Origin: an uncultured Chloroflexia bacterium
GTDB taxonomy: Bacteria > Chloroflexota > Dehalococcoidia > Dehalococcoidales > UBA2162
Length of the DNA stretch: 64,000 bases
Assembly: GCA_963735055.1 (NCBI GenBank)
Contig: CAVTJN010000019.1
Location: 329,547 to 393,546, forward strand
Reading direction: 5' to 3'
The stretch's first letter is position 1. Each line of letters opens with the position of its first letter. Shown piece by piece: positions 31,463-55,574 of this stretch. The position numbers were made by a program, and so were the translations under genes. Under the pieces are notes generated by a model that had not been told where the DNA came from, did not search any database, and saw nothing but the letters and a program-made list of their open reading frames with translations.

Positions 31463-31495
31463 GTATGACCTCCGGATGGTTGCATGATTTACGCC

Positions 31496-31525
31496 ATTCT
31501 ATCACCCTGGTTTTCCCAAAAGCAA
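31496..31525 (-). promoter_or_regulatory. selD promoter candidate
   Basis: Minus strand: TTGCTT (31525-31520), 18 nt, TAGAAT (31501-31496). Confidence 0.35.
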
Positions 31526-31584
31526 AGGAGTTCCTGGAACAACACATAGCTCAGACACTCACCACCAAGCCCAGGAAACTGCGT

Positions 31585-31613
31585 TTGACAGCCCCCCCTC
31601 CCCATTGTAGACT
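31585..31613 (+). promoter_or_regulatory. glyA promoter candidate
   Basis: TTGACA (31585-31590), 17 nt, TAGACT (31608-31613), then GAGGAG RBS and the ATG at 31633. Confidence 0.5.
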
Positions 31614-31632
31614 TCAAAAAGAGGAGAAAAGA

Positions 31633-32877
31633 ATGGGCTCTTTGAGGCAAGTTGACCCCGAGATCAGCCATGCCATCGAACTTGAGAAACAGCGGCTCCA
31701 GGAGAGGATAAACCTGATCGCGTCGGAGAACTACCCGAGCCGGGCGGTGATGGAAGCCCAGGGTTCGTTCTTGACTTCGAAATATGCCGAGGGTTACCCC
31801 CGCCACCGCCACTACCCCGGCTGCGAAAACGTGGATATGGTTGAAGATCTGGCCATCGAACGCGCCAAGTCCTTGTACCGGGCAGAACATGCCAATGTCC
31901 AACCCCACGCTGGAGCTCAGGCCAACATGGCCGCCTACTACGCAACTCTGGAGCACGGCGACACCATTATGGGAATGTCGCTGGCCCACGGCGGTCATCT
32001 AACTCACGGAGCGGACGTCAATTTTTCGGGCAAGCTCTACAACGTCGTAAGCTACGGGGTTGACCGCGATACGGAAAGAATCGACTACCGCGAATTGGAG
32101 CGGCTCGCAGTCAAACACCGCCCCAAACTAATAGTGGCCGGCTTCAGCGCATATCCAAGGATCATTGATTTCGAACGTTTCAGACAGATCGCGGACAGTG
32201 TCGGCGCCATCCTGATGGCCGATATTGCCCATATTGCCGGTATGGTCGCCGTGGGCCTCCATCCGACGCCGGTGCCCTACTGCGAAATCGTCACTTCGAC
32301 GACTCACAAGACGCTGCGCGGTCCGCGGGGCGGCTTCATCCTGTGCCGCCGAGCATTGGCTCCGGCAGTTGACCGGGCGGTCTTCCCCCAGATGCAGGGC
32401 GGCCCGTTGATGCACACCATCGCGGCCAAGGCGGTAGCTTTCCGCGAGGCGATGCTCCCCGAGTTCGTGGAATACCAGCGAGCGATACTCGACAACGCTC
32501 AAGTCCTGGCATCTGAGCTCAAGAGACTCGGGATGCGACTGGTCGCCGGCGGTACCGATACGCACCTGGTCCTCGTTGATCTTACCCGCAATGGCTTCAG
32601 CGGCAAGAAGGCTGAGGAAGCTTTGGGCAAGGCGGGTATTGTAGCAAACCACAACCTGATCCCGTTTGACCCGCGCCACCAGGCCGCAACGAGCGGGATC
32701 CGCCTCGGGACTCCGGCAGTCACTACCAGGGGATTCGGACCTGCCGAGATCAAGTTCATCGCCGCGAGCGTAGTTGACGTCCTCAACCACATTGATGATG
32801 CCAGGGTACAATCTCAGATCGCCGACAAGGTGAAGGAACTGTGCTTGCGGTTCCCGATACCGGCGCTGGTAGACTAG
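31633..32877 (+). CDS. glyA: Serine hydroxymethyltransferase
   Basis: ..[30 protein letters not shown].. ORF-track start 31465 is an unsupported 5' extension. Confidence 0.9.
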
Positions 32878-40501: not shown

Positions 40502-40530
40502 TTGACTTGCCCCGCCGCATGGGCTATACT
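40502..40530 (+). promoter_or_regulatory. Promoter candidate for the Wood-Ljungdahl cluster
   Basis: TTGACT (40502-40507), 17 nt, TATACT (40525-40530). Confidence 0.5.
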
Positions 40531-40561: not shown

Positions 40562-40596
40562 AAAGCTGAGTGCTTTCCCCCGGAAGTCTCAGCTTT
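40562..40596 (+). promoter_or_regulatory. 9-bp perfect hairpin in the cooC/fhs 5' leader
   Basis: AAAGCTGAG-n17-CTCAGCTTT, lying between the promoter and the ATG at 40621. Confidence 0.3.
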
Positions 40597-40620
40597 AATT
40601 ATGTCCCCAATAAGGTTTCA

Positions 40621-41391
40621 ATGAAGCTGGCAATTAGCGGCAAAGGCGGAGTAGGGAAGACTCTACTGTCGGCGTTACTGTGCAAGGCTTTCGCTGAATC
40701 AGGGTATTCGGTCATCGCGATCGACGCTGATCCCGACGCAAATCTGGCAGCTACTCTGGGTTTTCCCCACCCGGAACAGATCACCCCGGTATCCGAGATG
40801 AAGGAACTCATCGAGGAACGCACGGGTACCCGTCCGGGGGAGGTGGCACCATATTTCACTCTGAACCCCAAGGTTGACGATATCCCGGACAGATATGCCC
40901 ATCGCCATGAGGGGATCAGGCTGATGCGAATGGGCGATGTAAAGGGCGGCGGCCACGGCTGTTACTGTCCGGAAAGCGCCTTGCTCAAGACGCTCATGGC
41001 CCACCTGCTGGTCGCCCGGAATGAAGCCGTCATCCTCGATATGGAAGCAGGCATCGAACATTTGACCCGGGGCACAGCCGGCGCAGTGGATCGACTGGTG
41101 GTTGTTGTCGAACCGGGCCGGAGAAGCATCGAGACGGCGGTCAGCATTCACAAGCTGGCAACTGATCTGGGCCTGAAGAACCTTGCTGCGGTGGGCAACA
41201 AAGTGCGAGGTGAATCGGACCGGCAATTCCTGACGTCGGCCTTGCCCGGTTTTACGTTTCTCGGATTCATCCCCTACGACCAGGCGGTCGTGGATGCCGA
41301 CCTGGCGAACCGGTCGGTACTTACCGCCAGCCCCCGGGTGATCGCGGCGGTGAAAGAAATCTTCCAAGCTCTTATTTCGACGAAGAAGTAG
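40621..41391 (+). CDS. cooC: CooC-type nickel-insertion ATPase
   Basis: [15 protein letters not shown]-loop, then ..GCYCPE.. Confidence 0.85.
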
Positions 41392-41438
41392 TCGAACGAT
41401 TGGTCAAAGAGACACTAACTACAACAGGAGGAGACCGC

Positions 41439-43214
41439 ATGCCCTACGATGTTTCCAAAATGGCCGACTGGCAGATAGCTGATGCCGCCGAAGAGAACAT
41501 GCCCACGCCCGATGAATGGCGAGAGAAGCTGGCCCTGAAGAAAGATGAACTCCTGGCTCACGGAAAGGTCGCCAAGCTTGACTTTCTGAAGGTAATGGAG
41601 CGGTTGCAGAGTCGGCCGGACGGAAAGTACATCGAGGTAACGGCGGTGACCCCCACCCCACTGGGCGAAGGCAAGACCACCACGACCATGGGTCTTATTG
41701 AAGGTCTTGGAAAGCAAGGCGAGAACGTGGGCGGCTGTATCCGCCAGCCTTCGGGCGGCCCCACCATGAATGTCAAGGGGACGGCGGCCGGTGGTGGTAA
41801 CGCCATCCTCATCCCGCACACCGAGTTGTCCATGGGCCTGACGGGTGACATCAATGACATCATGAACGCCCACAACCTGGCGATGGTAGCGCTCACCGCC
41901 AGAATGCAGCATGAACGCAACTACGATGATGCGCAACTCATGAAATTCAGCAAGATGCCCCGCCTGGACATCGACCCGCTGAGAGTCGAAATGGGATGGA
42001 TCATTGACTTCTGCGCCCAGAGCCTCCGTAACATAGTGATCGGCCTGGGGCCGCAGAAGACCGACGGCTTCCTGATGCAGTCGAAGTTTGCCATTGCGGT
42101 GAGTTCCGAACTGATGGCAATACTCTCCATCATCAGGGATCTGGCCGACCTCAGGGCACGGATGAACGACATTACCGTAGCCTATGACAAGAAGGGCAAG
42201 GCAGTCACCACCGCCGATCTACAGGTGGCCGGAGCAATGACCGCCTGGATGCGGAACACCATCAACCCGACCCTATGCAGCACCGCCGAGTACCAGCCGG
42301 TCATGGTCCATGCCGGCCCCTTCGCCAATATCGCAGTCGGTCAATCTTCAATCATTGCCGACCGCCTTGGATTGAAGATGTTCGACTATCACGTGACCGA
42401 AAGCGGTTTCGCCGCTGACATCGGATTTGAGAAATTCTGGAACGTGAAGAGCCGCTTCAGCGGACTAAAACCCAACGTTTCTGTGCTCGTCGCCACGGTG
42501 AGATCGCTAAAGATGCACGGTGGTGGTCCGAAGGTAACCCCGGGAGTGGCTCTACCCGATGCCTACAAGAAGTCGGCTCCCGACCTGGTTGAAAAAGGGT
42601 GCGCCAATCTCGTCCATCACATCGGCATCATACGAGCCGCGGGAATCAATCCCGTTGTTTGCGTCAACATGTTCCCGACCGACAGCAAGGAAGAGATCGC
42701 CATCGTACGGAAGGCGGCGGAAGCGGCGGGGGCCCGCTGTGCCGTATCTACCCACTACGCCCAGGGGGGAGCGGGCGCCGGCGAGTTGGCCGATGCGGTC
42801 AAGGATGCCTGCAAAGAGAAGAATGATTTCCACTTCCTGTATCCCAATGAGATGAAGCTGCGCGACCGTGTTGAGAGGATAGCCAAGGTGGTCTACGGAG
42901 CCGCCGGGGTTAGTTGGTCTGCCGACGCCGAAGCCAAGGCCAAGCGCTTTGAGTCGGACAAGCAGTACGACGAATACGCAACCATGATGGTGAAGACGCA
43001 TCTGTCGCTCAGCCACGACCCGACCCTCAAAGGTGTACCCAAGGGTTGGACTCTCCCCATCAGAGACGTTCTTATCTACTCAGGGGCCAAGTTCCTTTGC
43101 CCGATGGCGGGGACTATCAGCCTGATGCCGGCAACCGGATCGGACCCGGCATTCCGGAAAATAGACGTGGACGTTAAGACGGGAAAGGTAAGGGGACTTC
43201 ACGAGGTAGACTAG
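41439..43214 (+). CDS. fhs: Formate--tetrahydrofolate ligase
   Basis: ..[15 protein letters not shown].. ATG after AGGAGG. 591 aa. Confidence 0.9.
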
Positions 43215-43264: not shown

Positions 43265-45241
43265 TTGGCGAAAGACGTAGCGGAGGCAGGCTGCAGGGTA
43301 CATTTTGAGCCAGGCAACTGTGACGTTGTCGTGGAAAAAGGGAGTAATCTGCTGGAGGCGGCAATTCAAGGCTGTGAAAGGCTTGTGGCCGCCTGCGGCG
43401 GATCGGGCACCTGTGGGACCTGCAAAGTGCTAATTGAAGAGGGGGAGGTCGAGACCACCCGGACGGCGAAGCTGTCTGATGAGGAATTCGCAAAGGGGCT
43501 TCGGCAGGCTTGCCAGACCAGGGTACTGACCGACCTGAGGGTGTTCGTACCGGTGGAATCTAGAATGGAGACCGCGGTGCTGTCCCGCGAGCGCAAGGGA
43601 CTGGCTGCGGGTTCTCGAGACGACGCCCTCGCCTCCGGATGGCGATTCAATCCTCCGCTGACCAAGTACTATCTCAAACTCCCGCCGCCGACATTGACCG
43701 ACAACAGCAGCGACCTGTCACGATTGTTGCGAGGTCTCAAGCAGGAATTCCGACTGGGCAACATGACCGTTGATTTTGATGTGGTTAAGCGCTTGCCTGG
43801 CGTCCTCCGGGCCATGGATTGGACCGCTACGGTGACGACGCTGGTTACGGCCCTAGAACCGTCGACCGTTAACCGAACGCGACGGCCAAGGCTGGTAAAC
43901 GTAGAGTCTGGGGATACGCGGCAAAGACACTATTCACTCGCGGTGGACATCGGGACCACGACGGTTAAAGGACAGCTGCTTGACCTGGCACGCGGCCGAG
44001 TCGTCGCCGAGAGCGCCGAGTACAACGGACAGAGGAGGTACGGGGCCGACGTCATTACCCGCATCACATACTGTCAGAAGCCGGGCGGCCTCGAGAGGCT
44101 GCAATCGGTCGTTGTTGAAACGATCAATAACATACTCGACAGACTACTCAACCAGAGCAGCGTGGACCGTGCGGATGTTGGCCACCTCAGTGTCGCCGGC
44201 AATACCACAATGATCCAGATATTCCTGGGTATCGACCCAAAGTACATCCGGCTCTCCCCCTATACGCCGGCAGCCACCTACTTGCCTCCGGTGAAGGCCG
44301 CCTCGCTGGGCGTCAGGGTGGCAGATCACGTCTACCTGTCCGCTTTTCCGCTGGTTGCGAGTTATATTGGTGGCGATATTACCGCCGGGGTGGTCGCGGC
44401 CGGCATGCACCAGACCAGGAAACTGACATTCTACATGGACATCGGCACGAATGGTCAAATCGTCATCGGGAACTCCGATTGGATGGTCACGGCCGCTTGT
44501 TCAGCGGGCCCCGCCTTCGAAGGTGGGGAGATCAAGCATGGGATGATCGCCACCAATGGCGCCATCGAAGGGTGCGACATCAATCCGACCACCCTTGAGC
44601 CGACAATCGGCACCATCGGCGGCGAAAAGCCGAAAGGAATCTGCGGCTCCGGGCTGATCAACATTGTTGCCGAGTTGCTAGAAAACGGGGTCATCGGCCA
44701 GAACGGCAAGTTCGACACCTCTCTCAACAGCGAGCGCATCCGGCGCGGTGAAGACGGATACGAGTACGTATTAGCCCCGGCCGGCGAAACCCAGATCGGG
44801 AAAGACATCGTGCTCACCGAAATCGACATCGACAATCTCCTTCGGGCAAAAGCGGCCATGTATGCCGGCTTTCGAACGCTGATCAAGAGCGTTGGCTTGG
44901 TGCCGAACGACGTCCAACAGATAGTCATTGCAGGAGCATTCGGTAGCTACATCAATGTGGACCGGGCGATCACGATTGGGCTCTTGCCTGATTTGCCGCG
45001 TGAACGGTTCATCTTCATCGGCAACGGCTCTCTGATGGGCGCTCGCCTGGCCGACTACTCGATCGACATCATCGACGAAGTCCGGCGGGTTGCCAGGGCG
45101 ATGACCAATTTTGAACTGAGCGAAAATACGGATTTCATGAACAACTACGTGGCGGCAATGTTTCTGCCCCATACGGACAGCGAAGAGTTTCCCTCGGTGA
45201 GTGCACGGTTGCCAAGCCTCGCGGGAAGAGGCCAGGAGTAG
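43265..45241 (+). CDS. RACo-like reductive activator of corrinoid Fe-S protein ([2Fe-2S] ferredoxin domain plus ASKHA ATPase)
   Basis: N-terminal CGGSGTCGTCKV. Central/C-terminal ..VDIGTTTVKG..MDIGTNGQ..CSAGPAFEGG.. Confidence 0.75.
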   Translation: MAKDVAEAGCRVHFEPGNCDVVVEKGSNLLEAAIQGCERLVAACGGSGTCGTCKVLIEEGEVETTRTAKLSDEEFAKGLRQACQTRVLTDLRVFVPVESRMETAVLSRERKGLAAGSRDDALASGWRFNPPLTKYYLKLPPPTLTDNSSDLSRLLRGLKQEFRLGNMTVDFDVVKRLPGVLRAMDWTATVTTLVTALEPSTVNRTRRPRLVNVESGDTRQRHYSLAVDIGTTTVKGQLLDLARGRVVAESAEYNGQRRYGADVITRITYCQKPGGLERLQSVVVETINNILDRLLNQSSVDRADVGHLSVAGNTTMIQIFLGIDPKYIRLSPYTPAATYLPPVKAASLGVRVADHVYLSAFPLVASYIGGDITAGVVAAGMHQTRKLTFYMDIGTNGQIVIGNSDWMVTAACSAGPAFEGGEIKHGMIATNGAIEGCDINPTTLEPTIGTIGGEKPKGICGSGLINIVAELLENGVIGQNGKFDTSLNSERIRRGEDGYEYVLAPAGETQIGKDIVLTEIDIDNLLRAKAAMYAGFRTLIKSVGLVPNDVQQIVIAGAFGSYINVDRAITIGLLPDLPRERFIFIGNGSLMGARLADYSIDIIDEVRRVARAMTNFELSENTDFMNNYVAAMFLPHTDSEEFPSVSARLPSLAGRGQE

Positions 45242-45246
45242 ACTAA

Positions 45247-46005
45247 TTGACTTTTTCAATTGCGGTTGCAGGGAAGGGCGGTACCGGCAAGACGACGCTG
45301 GCTACCCTTGTGGTTCGTCATCTGATCAGGCGAAAACTGGTGCCGATCCTGGCCATCGACGCCGACCCCAACGCGAACTTCGGGGAAAGCATGGGCCTCG
45401 AGGTCACCGAGACGGTCGGCTCCACGATCGCCGGTTTCAACGAGGATAAGATCCGCCTGCCCTCGGGAATGACCAAGGAAGCTTACCTGGAAGTCCAACT
45501 CAATGGGACGCTGGTGGAAAGCCGCGGGGTGGACCTGTTGACCATGGGACGGGGGCAAGGAGCTGAATGCTACTGCTACCCAAACCTGGTACTGAGGAAA
45601 TTCGCGGACACGCTGGTGCAGAACTACCCTTACATGGTGATGGACAACGAAGCAGGGATGGAACACCTCAGCCGCAGAACCACCGACAACATCGATGTCC
45701 TGGTGCTCGTATCAAACCATTCCATAAAGGGACTGCGGGCGGTGGCCAGAATCAAAGAACTAGTCGCCGAACTGAAGCTGCGGATCGGACGAGAATTGGT
45801 AGTCATTACCTCTGTGCCAGGGAGACTCGACCCCATGATGAGCGAAGAACTGGAAAACCTCGAAATCAAGCCCTTTGCCCTGATTCCGTACGATGAGACG
45901 ATACGAAAATACGATTTCGAACGGCGTACACTCCTTGACCTGCCCGACGACGCCATTGCAGTGGCCGCGGTAGACACTCTGATGTCGGGGATTCTAAGCA
46001 AATAG
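45247..46005 (+). CDS. CooC/AcsF-type nickel-insertion ATPase, second copy
   Basis: IAVAGKGGTGKTT, then ..AECYCYPN.. Confidence 0.8.
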   Translation: MTFSIAVAGKGGTGKTTLATLVVRHLIRRKLVPILAIDADPNANFGESMGLEVTETVGSTIAGFNEDKIRLPSGMTKEAYLEVQLNGTLVESRGVDLLTMGRGQGAECYCYPNLVLRKFADTLVQNYPYMVMDNEAGMEHLSRRTTDNIDVLVLVSNHSIKGLRAVARIKELVAELKLRIGRELVVITSVPGRLDPMMSEELENLEIKPFALIPYDETIRKYDFERRTLLDLPDDAIAVAAVDTLMSGILSK

Positions 46006-46027: not shown

Positions 46028-46906
46028 ATGGCGGCAGAGATAATCGACGGCAGACGGATAGCGGCCGAAATCCAAGGCGAGTTGAAAGAACGCATAGCCA
46101 AACTGCAGGACAAGGGCATCACCCCGAAGTTAGCCACCATACTCGTCGGAGAAGACCCGGCGTCTTTGTCCTATCTTCGCGGCATCACGCGCACTTGCGG
46201 CGAGGTCGGTGTTGCCACGGACGCGGTCAAACTCGCCGCGACGATCAACCAGGCGGACCTGCTGCACAAGCTTGAGGAACTGAACCGTGACTCAACAGTC
46301 CACGGGATATTGTTGTTCCTGCCACTGCCGAAGCAGCTCAACGCAATCGAAGCGGAGAGCGCCATTTCGCCAGACAAGGACGTCGATGGCACCAACCCGG
46401 TGAGCACCGGCAAATTGTTGCTGGGAGAAGAGACCTTCTACCCATCGACTCCCTACGGGGTCCAGGAGTTGCTGGTGCGAAGTGGCAACGACCCCGATGG
46501 GAAACATGTGGTTATCGTGGGCCGGAGCAACATAGTTGGCAAGCCTTTGATAGGAATACTCGTTCAAAAAGGCAGGGGCGCAAACGCCACTGTCACCGTG
46601 TGCCACACGGGCACTAAGAACCTGGCCGCAATTACCAGACAAGCTGACATCCTGGTGGCAGCGATGGGCAAGGCCCGAGCGATCACCTCGGATCTGGTGA
46701 GGGAAGGGACAGTAGTAATCGACGTGGGGGTAAACTTCGTCCCCGACCCGGCAACCGGGAAGAACAAGCAGGTTGGCGACGTCGATTTCGATGCGGTCAA
46801 GGAAAAGGCGAAGGCGATCACGCCGGTCCCCGGTGGTACGGGTGCAGTGACATCGATGATGCTCATGGCCAATACGGTCAAGGCCGCGGAACGAATCAGC
46901 AAATAG
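46028..46906 (+). CDS. folD: FolD-family methylene-THF dehydrogenase paralog 1 (cyclohydrolase Lys/Gln replaced)
   Basis: Canonical VIVGRSNIVGKPL, but SYLRGITRTC replaces YVxxKxKAC and LLFLPLP replaces QLPLP. Confidence 0.8.
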   Translation: MAAEIIDGRRIAAEIQGELKERIAKLQDKGITPKLATILVGEDPASLSYLRGITRTCGEVGVATDAVKLAATINQADLLHKLEELNRDSTVHGILLFLPLPKQLNAIEAESAISPDKDVDGTNPVSTGKLLLGEETFYPSTPYGVQELLVRSGNDPDGKHVVIVGRSNIVGKPLIGILVQKGRGANATVTVCHTGTKNLAAITRQADILVAAMGKARAITSDLVREGTVVIDVGVNFVPDPATGKNKQVGDVDFDAVKEKAKAITPVPGGTGAVTSMMLMANTVKAAERISK

Positions 46907-46934
46907 TCCAAATAACCTGGAAGAGGTGAACACC

Positions 46935-47816
46935 ATGCCGGCCAGGATTCTGGATGGGCGCAAGATATCTGCCGAGATACGGGAAGAGTTGAAGGAAGAG
47001 ACGAGGAAACTCGGGGAACGGGGGGTGGTTCCCGGACTTGCCGGTATCCTGGTGGGCGAAGACCCGGGTTCGGTGACCTACGTCGGTCTCAAGAGCAAGG
47101 CTTGCGAAGAAGTGGGCGTCAAGGAGATGATGTGCCATCTGCCGGAGACAGTCACCCAGACTGAACTGCTTCAGAACATCGATCGGCTTAACAAAGACCC
47201 CAAAGTCCATGCCATCTTCATTCAACTGCCACTCCCGAAGCATCTTTCCGAGGAGGGCGCACTTGCGGCGATCGCCCCCGATAAAGATGTCGACGGTTTT
47301 CACGCCATGAACGTAGGCCGGGCCTGGCTCGGGCAGAAGGCGTTTGTTCCCGCGGTGGCCATCGCGATTCAGGAGATGGTGATCCGCAGCGGATACTCTT
47401 TCGCCGGCAAGGAAGTGGTCATTATCAACGTAGATACGATGGTCGGCAGACCTTTGGCCTCGATACTGGTCCAGGATAACGCGCGGGCGAGGGCAAACGT
47501 CACAATGTGCTATCCTGACACCCCGAATCTCGCAGACTATACGAAGCGCGCCGATGTTGTAGTAGTCTCCGTCAACAAGCCAAGGTTCATCGTTGCGGAC
47601 ATGGTTAAGGAAGGCGCCGTCGTCATAGATTTCGGCGGGACGTTCGTTGAAGATCCGGTCACGAAGAGGCGAAGGACCGTTGGGGACGTGGACTTCGACG
47701 GCGTGAAGGAAAAGGCCGGCGCGATTACGCCGGTCCCCGGAGGCGTCGGACCGATGTTGGTAACCATGCTTATGCTTAGCGCTGTTGGTTCCGCCAAGAC
47801 AGCGGCCGGAATTTAG
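46935..47816 (+). CDS. folD: FolD-family paralog 2 (catalytic Tyr/Lys/Gln kept, Rossmann G-R-S motif degenerate)
   Basis: TYVGLKSKACEEVGV, IQLPLP, DKDVDGFH and PGGVGPML are present. VIINVDTMVGRPL replaces V(I/V)G(R/A)SxIVGxP. Confidence 0.8.
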   Translation: MPARILDGRKISAEIREELKEETRKLGERGVVPGLAGILVGEDPGSVTYVGLKSKACEEVGVKEMMCHLPETVTQTELLQNIDRLNKDPKVHAIFIQLPLPKHLSEEGALAAIAPDKDVDGFHAMNVGRAWLGQKAFVPAVAIAIQEMVIRSGYSFAGKEVVIINVDTMVGRPLASILVQDNARARANVTMCYPDTPNLADYTKRADVVVVSVNKPRFIVADMVKEGAVVIDFGGTFVEDPVTKRRRTVGDVDFDGVKEKAGAITPVPGGVGPMLVTMLMLSAVGSAKTAAGI

Positions 47817-47831
47817 GAAGGAGGAGGCACC

Positions 47832-48050
47832 ATGGAGTACAAGGTCGAGAAGAAGAGCGCACCTGGATGGGACCAGATAGACGTGCTCGGCGAGACCTAT
47901 GAGCCGGGAGTTCCGCAAGGACAGGAAATGGGAGCGTGGCGGCAGAAGCTGCTCAGCCGCGGTGAAAAACTAAGATACCTCGAAAGTGGGGAAAGATACT
48001 ACTACGGGAAGGAATGGTACGGCAGTGAGAAGAGAAAGAAGCCCGCATAG
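47832..48050 (+). CDS. Hypothetical 72-aa protein inside the Wood-Ljungdahl operon
   Basis: Strong RBS GGAAGGAGGAGG. Charged, Tyr/Lys-rich sequence with no recognised motif. Confidence 0.5.
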   Translation: MEYKVEKKSAPGWDQIDVLGETYEPGVPQGQEMGAWRQKLLSRGEKLRYLESGERYYYGKEWYGSEKRKKPA

Positions 48051-48066: not shown

Positions 48067-49011
48067 ATGGCAGTTGAAATTCCGAAAACGGCTTATACCG
48101 GCAAAATAAAACAGGTCGTCCTCGGCACGGGCCCCGGGGCCGTCACCGTGGGTGGCGAAACCGCGTACCCATTCTACCTCTTTGAAGGTCAGATGCCGAA
48201 CGTGCCGAAGATCGCCATGGAAGTCTGGGACTGCCCCCCGGAAGACTGGGCGGAAGCGGCCCTGCTGCCCTTCACCGGAGTAACCGACAACCCGGTTGCC
48301 TGGGCCAAGAAATGCATTCTCGACTACAAAGCCGAGATGATTTGCCTTCAGCTCATCAGCACCGACCCCAACGGCCTCAATCGCGGCGCCGAGGAAGCGG
48401 CACAATTGGTTAAGACGGTAGCTGACGCCATCTCGGTGCCCCTGATCGTCTGGGGAACGGCTAACCATGACAAGGACACCGAGGTGTTGAGAAGGGTTAG
48501 CGAACTGTGCCAGGGCAAGAGCCTGATTCTGGGACCGGTAGAAGAAGGAGATCACAAGCGGATTGGAGCGGCGGCCATGGCCTACAAGCACACCATCGCC
48601 GCGTCGACGCCAATCGACATCAACCTGGCCAAGCAATTGAATATCCTGTTGGGCAATCTGGGAGTACCAGATCAGCAAATCGTGGTCGACCCGACCGTGA
48701 GCGGCATCGGCTATGGCATCGAGTACTGCTACTCCGTCATGGAACGGATGAGAATGGCGGGGCTTGCCCAACAGGACGAGAAGCTACAATTCCCGATCAT
48801 CTGCAACATCTCAAAAGAGGTGTGGAAAACCAAAGAAGCCAAGATCGCGGCGAGCGAAGACCCCAAGATGGGCGATGCCTCCAAGCGAGGCATTCTGCTG
48901 GAGGCAATGTCGGCAATGTCGCTGCTCCTGGCGGGCGCCGACGTCCTGGTGATGCGGCATCCCGAGGCAATTAGACTAATTAGAGAGATGATAGCCGAGC
49001 TATCGTCATAA
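48067..49011 (+). CDS. acsD: Corrinoid/Fe-S protein small (delta) subunit
   Basis: 314 aa. TIM-barrel-type sequence adjacent to cooS/acsB/acsC. Confidence 0.8.
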   Translation: MAVEIPKTAYTGKIKQVVLGTGPGAVTVGGETAYPFYLFEGQMPNVPKIAMEVWDCPPEDWAEAALLPFTGVTDNPVAWAKKCILDYKAEMICLQLISTDPNGLNRGAEEAAQLVKTVADAISVPLIVWGTANHDKDTEVLRRVSELCQGKSLILGPVEEGDHKRIGAAAMAYKHTIAASTPIDINLAKQLNILLGNLGVPDQQIVVDPTVSGIGYGIEYCYSVMERMRMAGLAQQDEKLQFPIICNISKEVWKTKEAKIAASEDPKMGDASKRGILLEAMSAMSLLLAGADVLVMRHPEAIRLIREMIAELSS

Positions 49012-49026
49012 CTGGAGGTTGGAACG

Positions 49027-50995
49027 TTGGCGGACAAAGAGATTAAGAGCATAGACCAGGCCACTCTCGAGATGATCGAGAAGGCCAAAGAGGAAGGAGT
49101 CCTGAACGTCTTCGAGCGGGCGGAACGCATCAGGGCGTGCCCGATAGGACAAGAAGGCAGTTGCTGCGCCGTCTGCGCCATGGGACCATGCCGAGTGATG
49201 TTACCCAAGGGCAAGACCGAAACGCCCGATGAGAAGCGCAGGCGGACCGGTGTCTGCGGAGCCACCCCAGAAACAATCGCGGCCCGTAACCTGGTCCGCA
49301 AGATGGCGGTGGGGACGGCTTCACACGGCGACCACGGCCGCGAGGTAACCAAGATATTCCTCAAGGTAGCCCGCGGGGAAATCAAGGACTTCGAGATAAA
49401 GGACGAGCAGAAGCTGCTTCAACTGGCATTGGAGCTCGGCGTCAAGATCGGGGACCGGACGAACAACGAAATCGCCGTGGACGTCGGCGAACTGCTCCTG
49501 AAGGAATTCGGCAAACAGGAAGGAGAACTGGTCTTCCTGAAACGCGCTCCGCTAAAGCGGCAGGAATTGTGGCGTAAGCTGGGGGTCGCTCCGCGTGGAA
49601 TCGACATGGAAGTGTCGGAAGCGCTGCACCGCACCCACATGGGCATCGACCAGGACTACCACTCACCTGATGGACTCCGGCACCCGGGTCTCTCTGGCCG
49701 ACGGATGGGGCGGCAGCATGATCGCGACCGAACTCCAGGACATCCTGTTCGGCACGCCTTCACCGGTAGCCAGCCAGATCAATCTGGGAACGCTCAAAGA
49801 GGACGAGGTAAACCTGATCATCCACGGTCACGAACCTTATCTGGCCGAAATTCTTACCGTGGCGAGCCAGGACCCGGAGATGATTGCCTACGCCAAATCC
49901 AAGGGGGCGAAAGGAATCAACCTGGCCGGGATGTGTTGCACCGCCAACGAGATTCTGATGCGACACGGCATTCCCATTGCCGGCAACTTCCTGCAGCAGG
50001 AGCTGGCAATTGTAACCGGCGCTCTCGAAGGGATCGTGGTTGATGTCCAGTGCATCATGCAGGGACTAGCCGATGTCGCTAGCTGTTACCACACCAAGGT
50101 GATTACCACCGACCCGAGGGTGCACATTCAGGGCGCTACTCACATGGAATTCGACCCAAACCGGGCGATGGAGACCGCCAAAGAGGTACTCAGGGCCGTC
50201 ATCGACAACTACCCGAACCGAGGTAAGAACGTCCGCATTCCGAAGCAGAAGACGGACCTCATCGCCGGTTTTTCGCACGAAACGATCAACTATTTGCTGG
50301 GCGGGCTGTTCCGCTCATCCTACCGGCCCTTGAATGACAACATCATCAACGGTCGAATCAGGGGAGTCGCCGGCGTAGTGGGCTGCAACAATGCCCGGGC
50401 CAACCATGACAACAATCACGTCACGCTGGTGAAAGAGCTGATAAAGAACGACGTGCTGGTCCTCGAGACCGGTTGCGCCGCCATGGCTTGCGCGAAGGCC
50501 GGCCTGATGGTCCCCGAGGCGGCCAGAGAATTCGCCGGTCCCGGTCTGACCGAAGTCTGCGAAGCAGTAGGCATTCCGCCGGTGCTTCACATGGGCGCCT
50601 GTATCGACAATTCGCGCATCCTGGTGGCAGCTACGGCCATGGTCAAGGACGGCGGACTCGGCGATGACATCAGCGACCTGCCGGCGTGCGGCGCTGCCCC
50701 CGAATGGATGAGTGAGAAGGCGCTGGCCATCGGCCAATACTTTGTGGCGTCAGGCGTGTATACCATCTTCGGTGTCAACTGGCCAACAACTGGAAACCAG
50801 GAAGTCACCGACTACCTCTTTAAGGACTACGAGGCGATATATGGTGGCAAGTGGGCGTTCGAGCCTGACCCGATCAAGATGGCTAAGATGATGATCGATC
50901 ACATAGACAAGAAGCGCAAGGCCCTCGGTTTGGACAAGGCCAGAGAACGGGTCCTCTATGACATGGCGATGCGTCGGGAGTTGGAGAAGGAATAG
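49027..50995 (+). pseudogene. cooS: Ni-CODH catalytic subunit (CooS/AcsA) interrupted by one +1 frameshift
   Basis: ORF 49027..50043 (..CPIGQEGSCCAVCAMGPCRV..HRTHMGIDQDYHS) continues in ORF 49595..50995 (LMDSGTRVSLADGWGGSMIATE..) after one extra C at ~49663-49666 (CAC TCA C CTG ATG). Confidence 0.8.
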
Positions 50996-51028
50996 TCCGG
51001 CATCTGAAATACAGCGGAGGCTTGAATA

Positions 51029-53236
51029 ATGTCAAAAATAATCGCGTCAGCGGCAATTCGAGGGGCCCACAAGATAGTGGACCGGGCTGAGAAGAAGTGG
51101 CAGGACGCTATGGACAAGTGGGGGGCCAAGGAACCCGTCGGTTTCCCCAACACGGCGTACTACCTGCCTGTCATCTACGGTATCCTTGGCATGAAAGTGG
51201 AGAAGCTCGGCGACATGGAAGCCGTACTAAAGAAGACCCGGGCGATACTCCCGCCGCCGGTAAGAGAGACTCACCCGTTGCCCTACCTGGCGCCGGCACT
51301 CGACGCAGGCATGGCGACCCTTTTCGCTGAGGAGATAATTGAAGCTATCAGGTACCTGGAGACTCCAAACTTCTACACTAAGACGGAGGACCCGACCGAT
51401 GAGAACATCTGGCTGGGCGCGGCCGATGACATTATTCTGAGAAAGCGCGGTATTGAGTTCGTCGATGGTACGGCCCCCGGGTTTGCCGCCGTCCTCGGCG
51501 CCGCTCCCACCAAAGAAATCGCGGCCAAGATCGCCCAGGAACTGCAACAGAAGAACCTCTATGTCTTCATGTCAGCCGAGTACAACGGCAAGCGCTTTGC
51601 AGAGCAGCTTGTCGAAGCCGGTGTCCAGATCGGCTGGCCGACCCGCCTGGTTTCATTTGGCCCGGACGTATCGGCGACTGTCTTCGCCATGGGTTTTGCC
51701 ACCCGCGCCGCGCTATCCTTCGGCGGCATCGAGCCAGGCAACTTCCGTAACGTCCTCATCTACAACAAGGACCGTGTCTTTGCGTTCGCCTTGCCGATGG
51801 GCTACGTAACCGACGAGTGGTACGCCAACGCCGCCGGAGCCATCAACTTCGGCTTCCCGGTGATTGCCGACAGTCCGATCCCCGAGGTACTGCCCACCGG
51901 AATATGCACTTACGAGCATGTGGTTTCGAATATCGCCCACGACAAGATGGTGGCCAAGGCAATAGAAGTCCGGGGTCTTAAGGTCAACGTGGCCGCGGTC
52001 CCGATTCCGGTGGCCTTTGGCGCTGCTTTCGAAGGCGAAAGGGTGCGAGGCGAAGACATCTACCTCGAAGCCGGCGGCGGCCGGACAAAGATGGTGGAAT
52101 GGGTTACCAGCAAGCGCATGGACGAGGTCGAGGACGGCCGGGTCGAGCTCATCGGGCCGGATCTCACGGACATCAAGCCGGGGTCGAGACTACCCATGGC
52201 CATTACCGTAGAAGTCGCCGGCCGGGACATGCAGGAGGACTACGAGCCCATTCTGGAACGCCAGATTCACCACCTCATCAACTACATCCAGGGCGTGATG
52301 CACATCGGCCAGCGTGATATCGCCTGGATCCGGGTGAGTAAGCAGGCCATGGACAAGGGTTTCCGGCTGAAGCACATCGGAACGGTCCTTCACGCCAAAC
52401 TGCACCAAGACTTCGGCAGGATATTCGATAAGCTTCAGGTGAAGTTATACACAAATGAAGAAGACGTCAAGGTCATCGTCGACAAGGCCCGCGATGTCTA
52501 TCACACGAGAGATGCCCGCATCGAGGGCATGACGGACGAGGGCGTTGAGACCTACTACTCATGTACGCTGTGTCAATCGTTTGCCCCCAGTCACGTCTGC
52601 GTCATCAGCCCGGAGCGGACCGGTCTGTGCGGCTCTTACAACTGGATGGACTGCAAAGCGTCGTTTGAGATCAATCCCACCGGTCCGAACCAGCCGGTGG
52701 TCAAGGCCGGGGTAATTGACGGCAAGCTCGGGCAATGGCAAGGAGTTAACGATTTCGTCTTCAAGGCATCCCGGGGCAAGATCGACCATTACAACTTCTA
52801 CAGCATCGTCAACGACCCGATGACCACCTGCGGTTGCTGCGAATGCATCGCGGCCGTTCTCCCAATGTGCAACGGAGTGATGACCGTAAACCGGGAGTAT
52901 ACCGGAGAAACGCCGTCGGGCATGAAATTCACCACCTTGGCAGGAACCATCGGGGGCGGACTGAGCACGCCCGGCTTCGTCGGCCACGGCAAGTACAACA
53001 CCACTCAGCGCAAATATCTTGCCGGTGACGGTGGACTGCTGCGGATGGTCTGGATGCCCAAGAGCCTCAAGGAAGAATTAGGTGATCGATTCAAGGCAAG
53101 GGCGGCCGAACTAGGCGTACCCAACCTTATGGACATGATCGCTGACGAGACGGTTGGCACGACCGAAGACGCCATTCTTCCCTTCCTCCAAGAAAAGGGT
53201 CATCCGGCGCTCACCATGCCATCGCTACTGGGTTAG
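51029..53236 (+). CDS. acsB: CO-methylating acetyl-CoA synthase (ACS) subunit
   Basis: 735 aa. A-cluster region reads ..YYSCTLCQSFAPSHVCVISPERTGLCG..TTCGCCE.. Confidence 0.9.
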   Translation: MSKIIASAAIRGAHKIVDRAEKKWQDAMDKWGAKEPVGFPNTAYYLPVIYGILGMKVEKLGDMEAVLKKTRAILPPPVRETHPLPYLAPALDAGMATLFAEEIIEAIRYLETPNFYTKTEDPTDENIWLGAADDIILRKRGIEFVDGTAPGFAAVLGAAPTKEIAAKIAQELQQKNLYVFMSAEYNGKRFAEQLVEAGVQIGWPTRLVSFGPDVSATVFAMGFATRAALSFGGIEPGNFRNVLIYNKDRVFAFALPMGYVTDEWYANAAGAINFGFPVIADSPIPEVLPTGICTYEHVVSNIAHDKMVAKAIEVRGLKVNVAAVPIPVAFGAAFEGERVRGEDIYLEAGGGRTKMVEWVTSKRMDEVEDGRVELIGPDLTDIKPGSRLPMAITVEVAGRDMQEDYEPILERQIHHLINYIQGVMHIGQRDIAWIRVSKQAMDKGFRLKHIGTVLHAKLHQDFGRIFDKLQVKLYTNEEDVKVIVDKARDVYHTRDARIEGMTDEGVETYYSCTLCQSFAPSHVCVISPERTGLCGSYNWMDCKASFEINPTGPNQPVVKAGVIDGKLGQWQGVNDFVFKASRGKIDHYNFYSIVNDPMTTCGCCECIAAVLPMCNGVMTVNREYTGETPSGMKFTTLAGTIGGGLSTPGFVGHGKYNTTQRKYLAGDGGLLRMVWMPKSLKEELGDRFKARAAELGVPNLMDMIADETVGTTEDAILPFLQEKGHPALTMPSLLG

Positions 53237-53248
53237 CTGTAAGTCTCG

Positions 53249-53277
53249 TCGAGAGAGGGGCAGGGCCCCTCTCTCGA
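53249..53277 (+). promoter_or_regulatory. Intercistronic hairpin acsB|acsC
   Basis: 13-bp stem TCGAGAGAGGGGC-AGG-GCCCCTCTCTCGA. Confidence 0.4.
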
Positions 53278-53338
53278 GGTGTCGTCCGGGGAGCAGTGGT
53301 CGAGTCCACGCAATATCTCGAGAAGGAGTGACGGGAAC

Positions 53339-54685
53339 ATGCCACTAACGGGGATTGAAATATTTAAGCTGTTGCCGAAGACAAACTGCGGCGAATGCGG
53401 TGTGCCGACCTGCCTGGCGTTTGCGATGAACCTCGCCACCGGTAAGGCTGAGCTTGCCAAATGCGTCAAAGTATCCGAGGAAGCGAAGGCAAAGCTCCAG
53501 GAAGCATCGGCTCCGCCGATCAGACCGGTATCTATCGGTACCGGCAAGCGGGTGCTCAAAGTCGGTGGCGAGACCGTCATGTTCCGCCACGAGAAGCGAT
53601 TTGAGAATCCGACAGGCATTGCCGTTCTGGTAAAGGACACGATGCCTCAAGCTGAAATCGACGGTAGACTGGACCGGTTCAACCGGCTGCAGTACGAGAG
53701 GGTCGGCCTGACGCTGCGTCCCGACCTGGTCGCTGTGAAGGACGAATCCGGCGATGCCGGAACGTTTGCGGCGGCGGCTGCCAGGGTGAAGCAGGCGACC
53801 GATGCCGGTATGATTCTGATGAGCACCAATGCCGATCGCTTGGAGGCCGCTCTTAAGGACTGTGCTGACCGCAAGCCTTTACTCTATGGCGCAAACAAAG
53901 AGAATGTGGAGAAGTTGGCTGGGCTGGCCAAGGCAAAAGGTTGTCCGGTGGGCGTGCAGGCTTCCAGCATAGATGAGATTGCCGAACTGACGGCCAAACT
54001 TACGCAAGCGGGAATAAACGATATAGTCATCGATTCCGGAGCGAGGACGGTGAAGAAGGCCTTCCAGGAGCAAGTCATGATCCGCAGTTCCGCTCTGGTG
54101 AAGAAATTCAGGCCCCTTGGCTACCCCACGATCACTTTTCCGGCCGAGATGACCAATGATCCGCTGAAGGAAGCCGTCATCGCTTCGATGTTCGTGGCCA
54201 AGTACGGCGGCATCGTCGTCCTCTCTGACCTGCAGGGTGAGACCCTCTTTCCACTAGCCGTCCAGCGGTTGAACATCTTCACTGACCCGCAGCGTCCGCT
54301 GGCAACCACCGCTGGAATCTACGAAATTGGCGGACCCACTGAGAATTCGCCGGTCCTAATCACAAGCAACTTCTCGTTGACCTACTTCATCGTGTCGGGC
54401 GAAATCGAAAACAGCAAAGTCCCCACCTGGTTACTGGTTATGGACACCGAGGGCTTATCGGTGATGACGGCGTGGGCCGCCGGCAAGTTCGTCGCCGACG
54501 CCATCGCGCCCTTCGTGAAGAAGTCCGGGATCGGCGACAAGGTCAAACACCGCAAGCTCGTCATACCCGGTTACGCGGCGGTCGAGGCCGGGGGTCTTGA
54601 AGAAGAACTCGCCGGATGGCAGATACTGGTCGGGCCCCGGGACGGCGCTCATATACCGGCCTACCTGAAAGCATGGAAACCGTAG
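53339..54685 (+). CDS. acsC: Corrinoid/Fe-S protein large (gamma) subunit
   Basis: MPLTGIEIFKLLPKTNCGECGVPTCLAFA ([4Fe-4S] motif). ATG after AAGGAG. Confidence 0.9.
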   Translation: MPLTGIEIFKLLPKTNCGECGVPTCLAFAMNLATGKAELAKCVKVSEEAKAKLQEASAPPIRPVSIGTGKRVLKVGGETVMFRHEKRFENPTGIAVLVKDTMPQAEIDGRLDRFNRLQYERVGLTLRPDLVAVKDESGDAGTFAAAAARVKQATDAGMILMSTNADRLEAALKDCADRKPLLYGANKENVEKLAGLAKAKGCPVGVQASSIDEIAELTAKLTQAGINDIVIDSGARTVKKAFQEQVMIRSSALVKKFRPLGYPTITFPAEMTNDPLKEAVIASMFVAKYGGIVVLSDLQGETLFPLAVQRLNIFTDPQRPLATTAGIYEIGGPTENSPVLITSNFSLTYFIVSGEIENSKVPTWLLVMDTEGLSVMTAWAAGKFVADAIAPFVKKSGIGDKVKHRKLVIPGYAAVEAGGLEEELAGWQILVGPRDGAHIPAYLKAWKP

Positions 54686-54695
54686 GGAGGGAAGA

Positions 54696-55574
54696 ATGAT
54701 CCTTATCGGCGAAAACATCAATATCATGTCCAAGACGATCGGCCCGGCCATGCGCGAGCGGAACGCGAAGCCGATCCAGGAACTCGCCGTGGCCGAGACC
54801 AAGGCGGGAATCGACTACCTTGACCTTAATATCGGTCCGGCCCGCAAACTCGGCGATGAGATGATGAGATGGGTTGTCGAGACCGTTCAGTCCGTATCCG
54901 GAAAGTCGATTTCTCTGGACACCACCAATCCGGTGGCGATGGAGGCGGGCCTCAGAGCCTACAAAGGCAAGGCCCTGATCAATTCCATCTCGCTTCAGCC
55001 GGATAGACTCAATTCCGAGCTTCCGCTGGTCCGAAAATACAATGCGGACATGATCGGGCTCCTATGGGGCGTGGATGGAATGCCACGCGATGCCAATGAG
55101 AGATGCGCGATGGCCGTCGACCTGGTATACAAAGCCAACGAAGCTGGTGTCCCCAACGAGAACATCTGGGTCGACCCTATTGTAAGCCCGATATCGGTTG
55201 AGATAAACCAGGTCAAATCATGCGTCGAGTTCATGACCATGCTGGGCGAGATTTGCCCCGGCTGCAAGAGCACGGTTGGCCTGTCCAACATCTCCAACGG
55301 AACCCCAGACAAGCTACGGCCGGTACTGAACCGCACCTATATGATAATGCTGATGCGGTACGGTCTGTACTCCGCAATCGTGGACGCCTTCGACAGTGAT
55401 CTGGTCAAGATTGCCCGCGGGGAACGGCCCGATATTGTGGACCTCGTCCACCGGGTAATGGACGGGGAGAACCCGAACCTGGCCGCACTCACCAAGGAAC
55501 AGGCGGACTACGTCAAGACGGTCAAAGTGCTGAAGGGAGACACGCTGTATTCCCACTCCTGGCTTGAGGTATGA
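54696..55574 (+). CDS. acsE: Methyl-THF:corrinoid/Fe-S protein methyltransferase
   Basis: MILIGENINIMS..GIDYLDLNIGP.. pterin-binding barrel. Confidence 0.85.
   Translation: MILIGENINIMSKTIGPAMRERNAKPIQELAVAETKAGIDYLDLNIGPARKLGDEMMRWVVETVQSVSGKSISLDTTNPVAMEAGLRAYKGKALINSISLQPDRLNSELPLVRKYNADMIGLLWGVDGMPRDANERCAMAVDLVYKANEAGVPNENIWVDPIVSPISVEINQVKSCVEFMTMLGEICPGCKSTVGLSNISNGTPDKLRPVLNRTYMIMLMRYGLYSAIVDAFDSDLVKIARGERPDIVDLVHRVMDGENPNLAALTKEQADYVKTVKVLKGDTLYSHSWLEV

Follow-up and report, generated by a model that had tools for sequence, protein, structure and literature searches.

Division of the FolD activities in described systems

FolD is the textbook bifunctional enzyme of folate one-carbon (C1) metabolism and a drug target (MTHFD2; carolacton), and the way in which its two activities share a site is still argued from mutants. 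The present work concerns two adjacent genes, P1 and P2, which encode FolD paralogs inside a Wood-Ljungdahl operon on a 64-kb stretch of DNA from an uncultured Chloroflexia bacterium (GTDB lineage Dehalococcoidia; contig CAVTJN010000019.1), called here the window. It is proposed that the two genes probably form a subfunctionalised pair derived from a bifunctional FolD, in which P1 would be a methylene-tetrahydrofolate (methylene-THF) dehydrogenase only and P2 a methenyl-THF cyclohydrolase only.

Canonical FolD/MTHFD enzymes (E. coli FolD, PDB 1B0A; human MTHFD1, 1A4I; MTHFD2, 5TC4) share with P1 and P2 the two-domain fold, the Pfam domains and the step after Fhs, at 40-45% identity to solved structures. 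Residues are numbered here as in the dehydrogenase/cyclohydrolase (DHCH) domain of human MTHFD1, whose sequence was verified against PDB 1A4I/6ECQ. A canonical FolD combines K56, Q100 and D125 with the G-R-S loop and the R/H/S NADP site in one chain, whereas P1 and P2 hold one set each. Mutants separating the two functions are known. Schmidt and co-workers reportedly found in 2000 that human K56 mutants keep the dehydrogenase and lose the cyclohydrolase activity. For E. coli FolD, the K54N variant was shown to retain ~19% of the dehydrogenase activity with undetectable cyclohydrolase, and Q98H 8% and ~1%, respectively; the authors concluded that K54 is essential for the cyclohydrolase reaction (PMC5688156). 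In the methods of the same work, the cyclohydrolase assay follows methenyl-THF consumption and NADP is unmentioned (PMC5688156). P1 is a natural equivalent of these variants, with K56I accompanied or not by Q100F/L. However, the FolD mutants are laboratory or resistance variants with reduced fitness, and P1 is a member of a natural family that is conserved, is subject to purifying selection and has a partner dedicated to it.

The two activities can also reside on separate proteins. A similar division of labour is found in methylotrophs, between MtdA and Fch, and the fold of both FchA and Fch is unrelated to that of FolD. Yeast MTD1 has the FolD fold and acts as a dehydrogenase but not as a cyclohydrolase; Thr and Tyr stand in place of its catalytic Lys and Gln. 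This monofunctional, NAD-dependent methylene-THF dehydrogenase of the FolD superfamily (PDB 1EDZ) is a distant PDB match of both P1 and P2 (E ~1e-8); its sequence is far removed from that of P1, and it lacks a FolD-derived cyclohydrolase partner. In acetogens (Clostridium, Acetobacterium, Thermoanaerobacter), FchA and FolD place both activities on two proteins encoded side by side in the Wood-Ljungdahl cluster, an arrangement like that of P1 and P2 (PMC10213532, PMC9040625). P2 differs from FchA in being a FolD paralog with a degenerate Rossmann site, and an FchA-type gene was not seen in the window. Splitting of the two activities is already known. What was not found elsewhere, in NCBIfam or the full-text literature, is a cyclohydrolase partner that is an NADP-site-degenerate FolD paralog paired with a K56-less FolD. 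Full-text literature searches returned no description of split FolD paralogs in Dehalococcoidia, and papers on Dehalococcoidia take FolD as bifunctional.

Complementary residue losses in P1 and P2

A gap-free alignment of P1 and P2 covers 288 residues at 49% identity, and both contain the catalytic domain PF00763 at the N terminus and the NAD(P)-binding domain PF02882 at the C terminus (Pfam, E 1e-37 to 1e-60), which places them in the FolD superfamily. All NCBIfam FolD models stay below their cut-off (30/30; best scores of 319 bits for P1 and 297 for P2, cut-off 421 in both cases). The lists of residues engaged in substrate binding and catalysis (7) and in the NADP site (13) of human DHCH were taken from the literature (PMC3368264). 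The original prediction, made from the letters of the window, had described complementary motif losses in the two genes, and every motif that it quoted is present in the translations. HMMER alignments of both proteins to solved FolD structures are gap-free around the changed motifs, and re-placement of gaps does not restore the canonical residues.

The motifs of P1 are SYLRGITRTC (nucleotides 46169-46198), LLFLPLP, VGRSNIVGKP and PGGTGAVT. Alignment to human MTHFD1 confirmed the predicted combination of a kept dinucleotide motif with K56I, K58R and Q100F; the loop PGGTGAV is a further change relative to the human enzyme. Retained are G172, R173, S174, H196, T197, T148, Y52, D125, G273 and G276. 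Canonical-type residues stand at 12/13 NADP-site and 5/7 substrate positions, K56 and Q100 being lost, and the site for the NADP 2'-phosphate (G-R-S, H, T) is intact. The catalytic lysine of the YxxxK motif of bifunctional FolD is absent from P1 and present in P2, while D125 is found in both. Position 56 is Ile in each of 45 P1-family sequences as against Lys in 133/133 canonical FolDs, and position 100 of the same 45 sequences is Q (27), F (12) or L (6). With intact dinucleotide and folate sites and no catalytic Lys, P1 has the features of a monofunctional FolD-fold dehydrogenase.

The catalytic Lys is also missing (replaced by I, Q, L, V and others) in 29 of the 150 FolD representatives of a 50%-identity library that best match P1 (P0241-P0390), and K56-less FolDs are hence widespread outside Dehalococcoidia. 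In one of these representatives, P0326, K56I occurs along with a classical GGAGKQG motif and an Asp at residue 196, a combination resembling an NAD-type site.

The motifs of P2 are TYVGLKSKAC, FIQLPLP, DKDVDG, PAVAIA, INVDTMVGRP and PGGVGPML. It was predicted that TYVGLKSKAC, IQLPLP, DKDVDG and PGGVGPM are kept beside a degenerate Rossmann motif (N-V-D), and this proved correct. The changes relative to the human enzyme are G172N, R173V, S174D, S197P, V236F, C147A, T148V, P149A and G151A. All seven substrate and catalytic residues (Y52, K56, Q100, L101, D125, G273, G276) are retained, each in 46/46 members of the family, and 120/120 close homologs have the same PGGVGPM loop. In the same family N172 occurs in 45/46 sequences and D174 in 46/46, with R173 lost in all 46 (V/T/A); for comparison, G172 and S174 are each found in 133/133 canonical FolDs of the same alignment. 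The 2'-phosphate site is lost, N-V-D, Y and P standing in place of G-R-S, His196 and Ser197. The replacement of the CTPxG loop by AVAIA is present as originally described, but T148 of this loop, which had been taken for a substrate loop, is an NADP-site and not a folate-binding residue (PMC3368264), and its loss in P2 therefore belongs to the degraded NADP site. The AlphaFold2 (AF2) model of P2 (predicted local distance difference test score, pLDDT, 85.7) matched FolD structures at a template modelling (TM) score of ~0.9. Only FolD domains in Pfam and only FolD structures were matched, so that P2, which may function as FchA does, is not a member of the FchA/Fch family.

Proposed functions of the pair

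P1 and P2 would descend from a bifunctional FolD and would be co-transcribed in the methyl-branch part of the Wood-Ljungdahl operon. P1 keeps the whole NADP(H) site, in which Arg, His and Thr form the triad for the 2'-phosphate, along with the residues that bind folate; as Ile occupies the place of the lysine essential for the cyclohydrolase reaction, NADP-dependent methylene-THF dehydrogenation is its only predicted activity. In P2 the folate and catalytic residues are kept, and both the glycine-rich loop and the triad for the 2'-phosphate have disappeared (N-V-D, Pro197, Phe236), which leads to the prediction of methenyl-THF cyclohydrolase activity only. In the reductive direction, Fhs would make 10-formyl-THF and supply it to the pair, P2 would close it to 5,10-methenyl-THF, and P1 with NADPH would convert the latter to 5,10-methylene-THF. 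The E. coli K54N result supports, by analogy, the predicted dehydrogenase-only character of P1, and the assay as described in that work (PMC5688156) shows for the analogous enzyme that FolD cyclohydrolase chemistry would need no NADP. From residue states, conservation, purifying selection, synteny and fusion we infer the two activities and a complex of both proteins; the split into a dehydrogenase-only and a cyclohydrolase-only enzyme, suggested at the outset, gains support from the conservation in ~48 species, selection, synteny, the fusion and the K54N mutagenesis.

Conservation, selection and phylogeny

A locus scan limited to a single genome for each species yielded 79 loci. Of these, 48, all from Dehalococcoidia/Chloroflexota, carry a K56I-type gene with an N-x-D-type gene immediately after it and never in the reverse order; the N-x-D-type gene forms an ORF of its own in 46 loci, is fused in 1 and disrupted in 1, and two further contigs end inside or just after P1. 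The disrupted P2 (L028:8880-9780, Dehalococcoidia metagenome-assembled genome (MAG) DAOUMA01) has internal stops 3' of an intact P1 and is either a pseudogene or an assembly error. Loci at most 57% identical to P1 (other phyla, some other Dehalococcoidia, SAR202) contain a single canonical FolD. At least 120 database clusters each for P1 and P2 show 76-100% identity and the same motifs, the close homologs coming from Dehalococcoidia/Chloroflexota MAGs, and fhs lies within the read flanks of most related pair-carrying loci. The complementary pattern is far beyond chance and is not noise. The ratio of nonsynonymous to synonymous substitution rates (dN/dS) is 0.04-0.11 for both genes in locus pairs with dS <1 (~0.05-0.1 in P1, ~0.05-0.11 in P2), the few higher values coming from near-identical pairs. 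P1 and P2 are under strong purifying selection and neither is decaying.

In neighbour-joining (NJ) trees the P1 family is monophyletic with 100% bootstrap and the P2 family with 99%. The NADP domain of P2 is 47% identical to canonical FolDs, as compared with 61% for P1, and in the catalytic domain P2 is slightly closer to them than P1. The distant pairs (L015-L043) have a P1 with Q100 and PGGTGPV and a P2 with P-A-T-P-x-G and PMT. The sub-clade of the window alone adds Q100F/L and P277A to P1 and T148V/P149A/G151A with T279L to P2. The family-defining changes are K56I in P1 and G172N/R173x/S174D, S197P and V236F in P2. Of the predicted motif losses, K56I and N-x-D are general to the pairs, and Q100F and AVAIA are restricted to the sub-clade; the former are ancestral to all pairs and the latter are later losses. 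Subfunctionalisation predicts such a ratchet, since the later losses are confined to the half-site that would already be unused. The sub-clade changes track one clade and hence represent a single event and not independent replicates.

A different case of FolD paralog decay or specialisation is seen in a Bacillota MAG (JAAZMI01, L050:7956-10691), with three consecutive FolD-like open reading frames (ORFs). The leading ORF is canonical, the middle one heavily degenerate (K56E, Q100R, D125G, PGGVGPM lost), and the last carries D125E together with changes in the region of Q100. The apparent occurrence of a canonical FolD (P0396) on one contig with a P1 homolog (P0046) was rejected; each contig is 46,956 bp long, but they are different contigs.

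A second FolD family with a degenerate NADP site

Another family, distinct from P2 and sharing 48% identity with it, is named here FolD* (P0309, P0391-P0395, P0397, P0404). It also has K56, Q100 and D125 intact and a degenerate NADP site, in which G-R-S is changed to G-[MVA]-x, CTP to SPAA, H196 to D/G/Q and, as in P2, T279 to L/I. The FolD* genes lie directly 3' of fhs, adjoined by a gene for a PF01993 Mtd or an F420 ligase (loci L080-L087, on metagenome and MAG contigs). PF01993 Mtd is the F420-dependent methylene-tetrahydromethanopterin (methylene-H4MPT) dehydrogenase family. The L080 locus also contains glycine-cleavage, 5-formyl-THF cyclo-ligase and lipoate ligase genes, and the contigs look archaeal, e.g., L084. 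FolD* thus resembles P2 in the kept K56/Q100/D125, the degenerate NADP site, T148A, T279L/I and the adjacency to fhs; it differs in that the first Gly of the loop is kept and that the neighbouring dehydrogenase candidate is a PF01993 Mtd and not a K56-less FolD. As a second setting of an NADP-site-less FolD beside a different dehydrogenase, FolD* supports by analogy the reading of P2 as cyclohydrolase-only. The FolD*-Mtd loci may represent an F420-linked folate C1 module.

Fusion and possible association of the two proteins

The spacer between P1 and P2 is 3-43 nucleotides in 39/44 loci, and every P2 has its own ribosome-binding site. In one MAG (L031:7965-9767), both are joined in a single 601-codon in-frame P1-P2 ORF. 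Its relatives L026, L027 and L029 read ...GGAGTTTAACAAAGATG with the TAA stop present, and L031 reads ...GGAGGGTTAACAAAGATG; the T-to-GG difference removes the stop and brings P2 in frame, and the fused ORF retains an internal ribosome-binding site before its second half. A pattern scan of Joint Genome Institute (JGI) metagenomes found the unfused form on 7 related contigs and the fused form on 3 contigs (L091, L092, L094) from three assemblies, two of them of 183 and 310 kb, with 0-1 mismatches to L031 in 1806 nucleotides. The P1-P2 fusion is real.

With both termini of FolD, N and C, located in the distal catalytic domain, the linker of the fusion may be too short to bridge a canonical dimer inside one chain. 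Dimerisation of FolD proceeds via α5, α7, α8 and β6, all in the NADP domain, and a lysine of the partner subunit reaches the 2'-phosphate on the cofactor (PMC3368264). Conservation of these interface elements compared with the rest of the NADP domain is 0.82 vs 0.76 in P2; little or no difference is seen in P1 (0.86 vs 0.87) or in canonical FolDs (0.65 vs 0.63). A 1:1 P1/P2 complex is proposed, given that the NADP domain is where FolDs dimerise and that both genes are fused in one lineage. As judged from these sequence comparisons, a heterodimer is plausible, and the suggestion that the two proteins form an obligate complex is tentative, with the balance somewhat against it. Doubtful and more speculative still is an obligate asymmetric heterodimer (a fused chain in one lineage) in which the N-x-D/Pro197/Phe236 pocket and the interface loop of P2 would act in trans on P1, e.g., by assisting in the binding of the 2'-phosphate end of the NADPH of P1 across the β6-β6 interface or by gating the hand-over of the intermediate, with the same principle of an NADP-site-less cyclohydrolase arising independently in the archaeal-type Fhs-FolD*-Mtd (F420) loci. 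A charge pair of K181 (P1) and D181 (P2) was considered as a specifier of the heterodimer and dropped, as it is confined to the closest sub-clade and not found in the wider P2 family.

Points against the proposed division and alternative explanations

Several points weigh against the division of labour and the complex proposed here. In E. coli, loss of K54 or Q98 cuts the dehydrogenase activity as well, to 19% and 8% (PMC5688156), and P1 of the window, having both changes, would need compensating changes to be a good enzyme. The strict conservation of N172 and D174 in P2, which are not drifting, hints at a positive role outside the model. A joint clade of P1 and P2 has an NJ bootstrap of at most 3%, and 40% with up to 8 extra sequences allowed. 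The AF2 model of P1 is poor and uninformative (pLDDT 51; shallow alignment of 52 sequences, all at least 79% identical). The check for folD and fchA covers the 64-kb window, and a canonical folD or fchA may lie elsewhere in the genomes. The fusion is confined to one population, and the active sites of FolD lie far from the dimer interface (PMC3368264), for which reason a heterodimer offers no obvious channel for the intermediate.

Two alternatives concern P2 and are about equally improbable. It might be an inert pseudoenzyme, a structural or regulatory partner stabilising P1, with the cyclohydrolase step proceeding spontaneously or by an enzyme encoded elsewhere. The lost NADP site, the interface elements, whose conservation exceeds that of the remaining NADP domain, and the disrupted P2 of L028 agree with such a role, and the cyclohydrolase reaction can run spontaneously (PMC5688156). 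However, a pure scaffold does not need K56, Q100 and D125, whereas the seven folate and catalytic residues are invariant in 46/46 species and PGGVGPM in 120/120 close homologs, dN/dS is ~0.07, and the analogous FolD*-plus-Mtd loci show no other cyclohydrolase gene in view; we consider a pseudoenzyme unlikely. Equally unlikely is a neofunctionalised P2, whose pocket (N-x-D, Pro197, Phe236, Phe221) would bind another ligand, such as another hydride carrier, e.g., F420, a regulatory nucleotide or a partner protein, instead of or beside cyclohydrolase activity. This would account for the strict conservation of N172, D174 and F236, and the analogous FolD* family is linked to the F420 genes Mtd and CofE. 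Against it, the F420 link in the FolD* loci is already accounted for by the separate Mtd, the adjacent P1 supplies an intact NADP-dependent dehydrogenase site, and a positive sign of another ligand is absent from this analysis.

It is very improbable that both proteins are still bifunctional, P1 by means of another basic residue and P2 through unusual NAD(P) binding, in spite of the full FolD fold and most of the consensus being kept in both. P1 does have Arg at human positions 54 and 58, but this candidate compensation for K56 was rejected, as R/K are equally common there in canonical FolDs and hence not specific; moreover, position 54, two residues before 56 on helix α2, would point in another direction. 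In P2 the loop's first Gly, the complete triad for the 2'-phosphate and T148 have all been lost at once, and two bifunctional enzymes would leave the strict complementarity and obligate adjacency in 48 species unexplained. A decaying pseudogene or an assembly or annotation error, suggested by the frameshift in the carbon monoxide dehydrogenase (CODH) gene of the window and by related long-read MAGs full of frameshifts, is effectively refuted by two intact ORFs, 76-100% identity in at least 120 protein clusters each, strong purifying selection and dozens of independent assemblies. A subfunctionalised pair with a dehydrogenase-only P1 and a cyclohydrolase-only P2 remains the preferred reading.

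Gene layout of the operon

The position inferred for the pair in the original prediction was right: it lies inside a Wood-Ljungdahl operon, with fhs, RACo and acs/CODH genes around it. On the + strand the operon reads cooC-fhs-RACo-cooC-P1-P2-72-aa ORF-acsD-CODH-acsB-acsC-acsE-DUF3786 gene (Table 1). No terminator-like site was found between operon genes, and an Rfam scan of the whole window gave one tRNA only, with no riboswitch near the operon. The most likely start of P2 is ATG 46935, not GTG 46926, because the ATG is preceded by a GAAGAGG ribosome-binding site and the copy in the database has 293 aa. In the 64-kb window no metF, metV, fchA or formate dehydrogenase genes were seen, and no canonical folD.

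Table 1. Coordinates of the FolD pair, its key codons and the surrounding operon in the window, with the FolD* example at locus L080
Feature	Position	Strand	Remarks
Promoter-like site, TTGACT-17-TATACT	40502..40530	+	5' of the operon, just before the first cooC; consensus match only
cooC-type Ni-insertion ATPase, first copy	40570..41391	+	syntenic in related loci
fhs, formate-tetrahydrofolate ligase	41400..43214	+	PF01268, E 2e-204
RACo, reductive activator of corrinoid protein	43265..45241	+	
cooC/acsF-type ATPase, second copy	45247..46005	+	
P1 (gene 1, FolD paralog)	46028..46906	+	292 aa; PF00763+PF02882
Ile53 of P1, codon ATC	46184..46186	+	in place of the catalytic lysine (K56 in human, K54 in E. 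coli)
Phe97 of P1, codon TTC	46316..46318	+	position of human Q100; sub-clade-derived change
Spacer P1/P2	46907..46934	+	28 nt; GAAGAGG ribosome-binding site; without terminator
P2 (gene 2, FolD paralog)	46935..47816	+	293 aa; PF00763+PF02882
Asn165-Val166-Asp167 of P2, codons AAC GTA GAT	47427..47435	+	in place of the G-R-S dinucleotide-binding loop
72-aa ORF between P2 and acsD	47832..48050	+	conserved; without Pfam match
Carbonyl-branch genes acsD to acsE, whole block	48067..55574	+	
acsD	48067-49011	+	
CODH acsA	49027-50995	+	split by 1-nt frameshift
acsB	51029-53236	+	
acsC	53279-54685	+	
acsE	54696-55574	+	followed by the DUF3786 protein gene
FolD* example	L080:4916-5791		
Mtd beside the FolD* example	L080:5766-6590		

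The 72-aa ORF is an unannotated small protein of the Wood-Ljungdahl operon. Its homologs occupy the same position in 19 related loci and share the conserved segment VLGxTFExGKPEGEExGRWRQKL and the C-terminus ...ERYWYGKEWYGSEKRKNPA. The CODH gene (acsA/cooS) of the window consists of two overlapping ORFs with an apparent 1-nt indel near 49660-49680 (...DQDYH|S... / ...LMDSGTRVSLADGWGGSM), and the intact ortholog in L004 has no interruption at that point; the split is due either to misassembly or to a genuine frameshift in the key enzyme of the carbonyl branch. The two cooC-type ATPase paralogs flank fhs and RACo, and both are syntenic in the closest related loci. The glyA gene (serine hydroxymethyltransferase; 31465-32877, + strand) lies ~8 kb upstream of the operon.

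Implications

A natural, conserved half-site pair would provide evolved separation-of-function enzymes for tests of the FolD mechanism, and P2 would be a FolD-fold cyclohydrolase needing no NADP site. If the trans-acting heterodimer were true, it would be a new quaternary solution for the coupling of both C1 steps. The pair also gives a clean example of complementary degeneration after a duplication, with a visible ratchet. The Wood-Ljungdahl operons of many Dehalococcoidia, which are abundant in the subsurface and in sediment, are now annotated with two bifunctional FolDs. Metabolic reconstructions and cofactor assignments (NADPH vs other donors) should treat the pair as what it probably is, one dehydrogenase and one cyclohydrolase.

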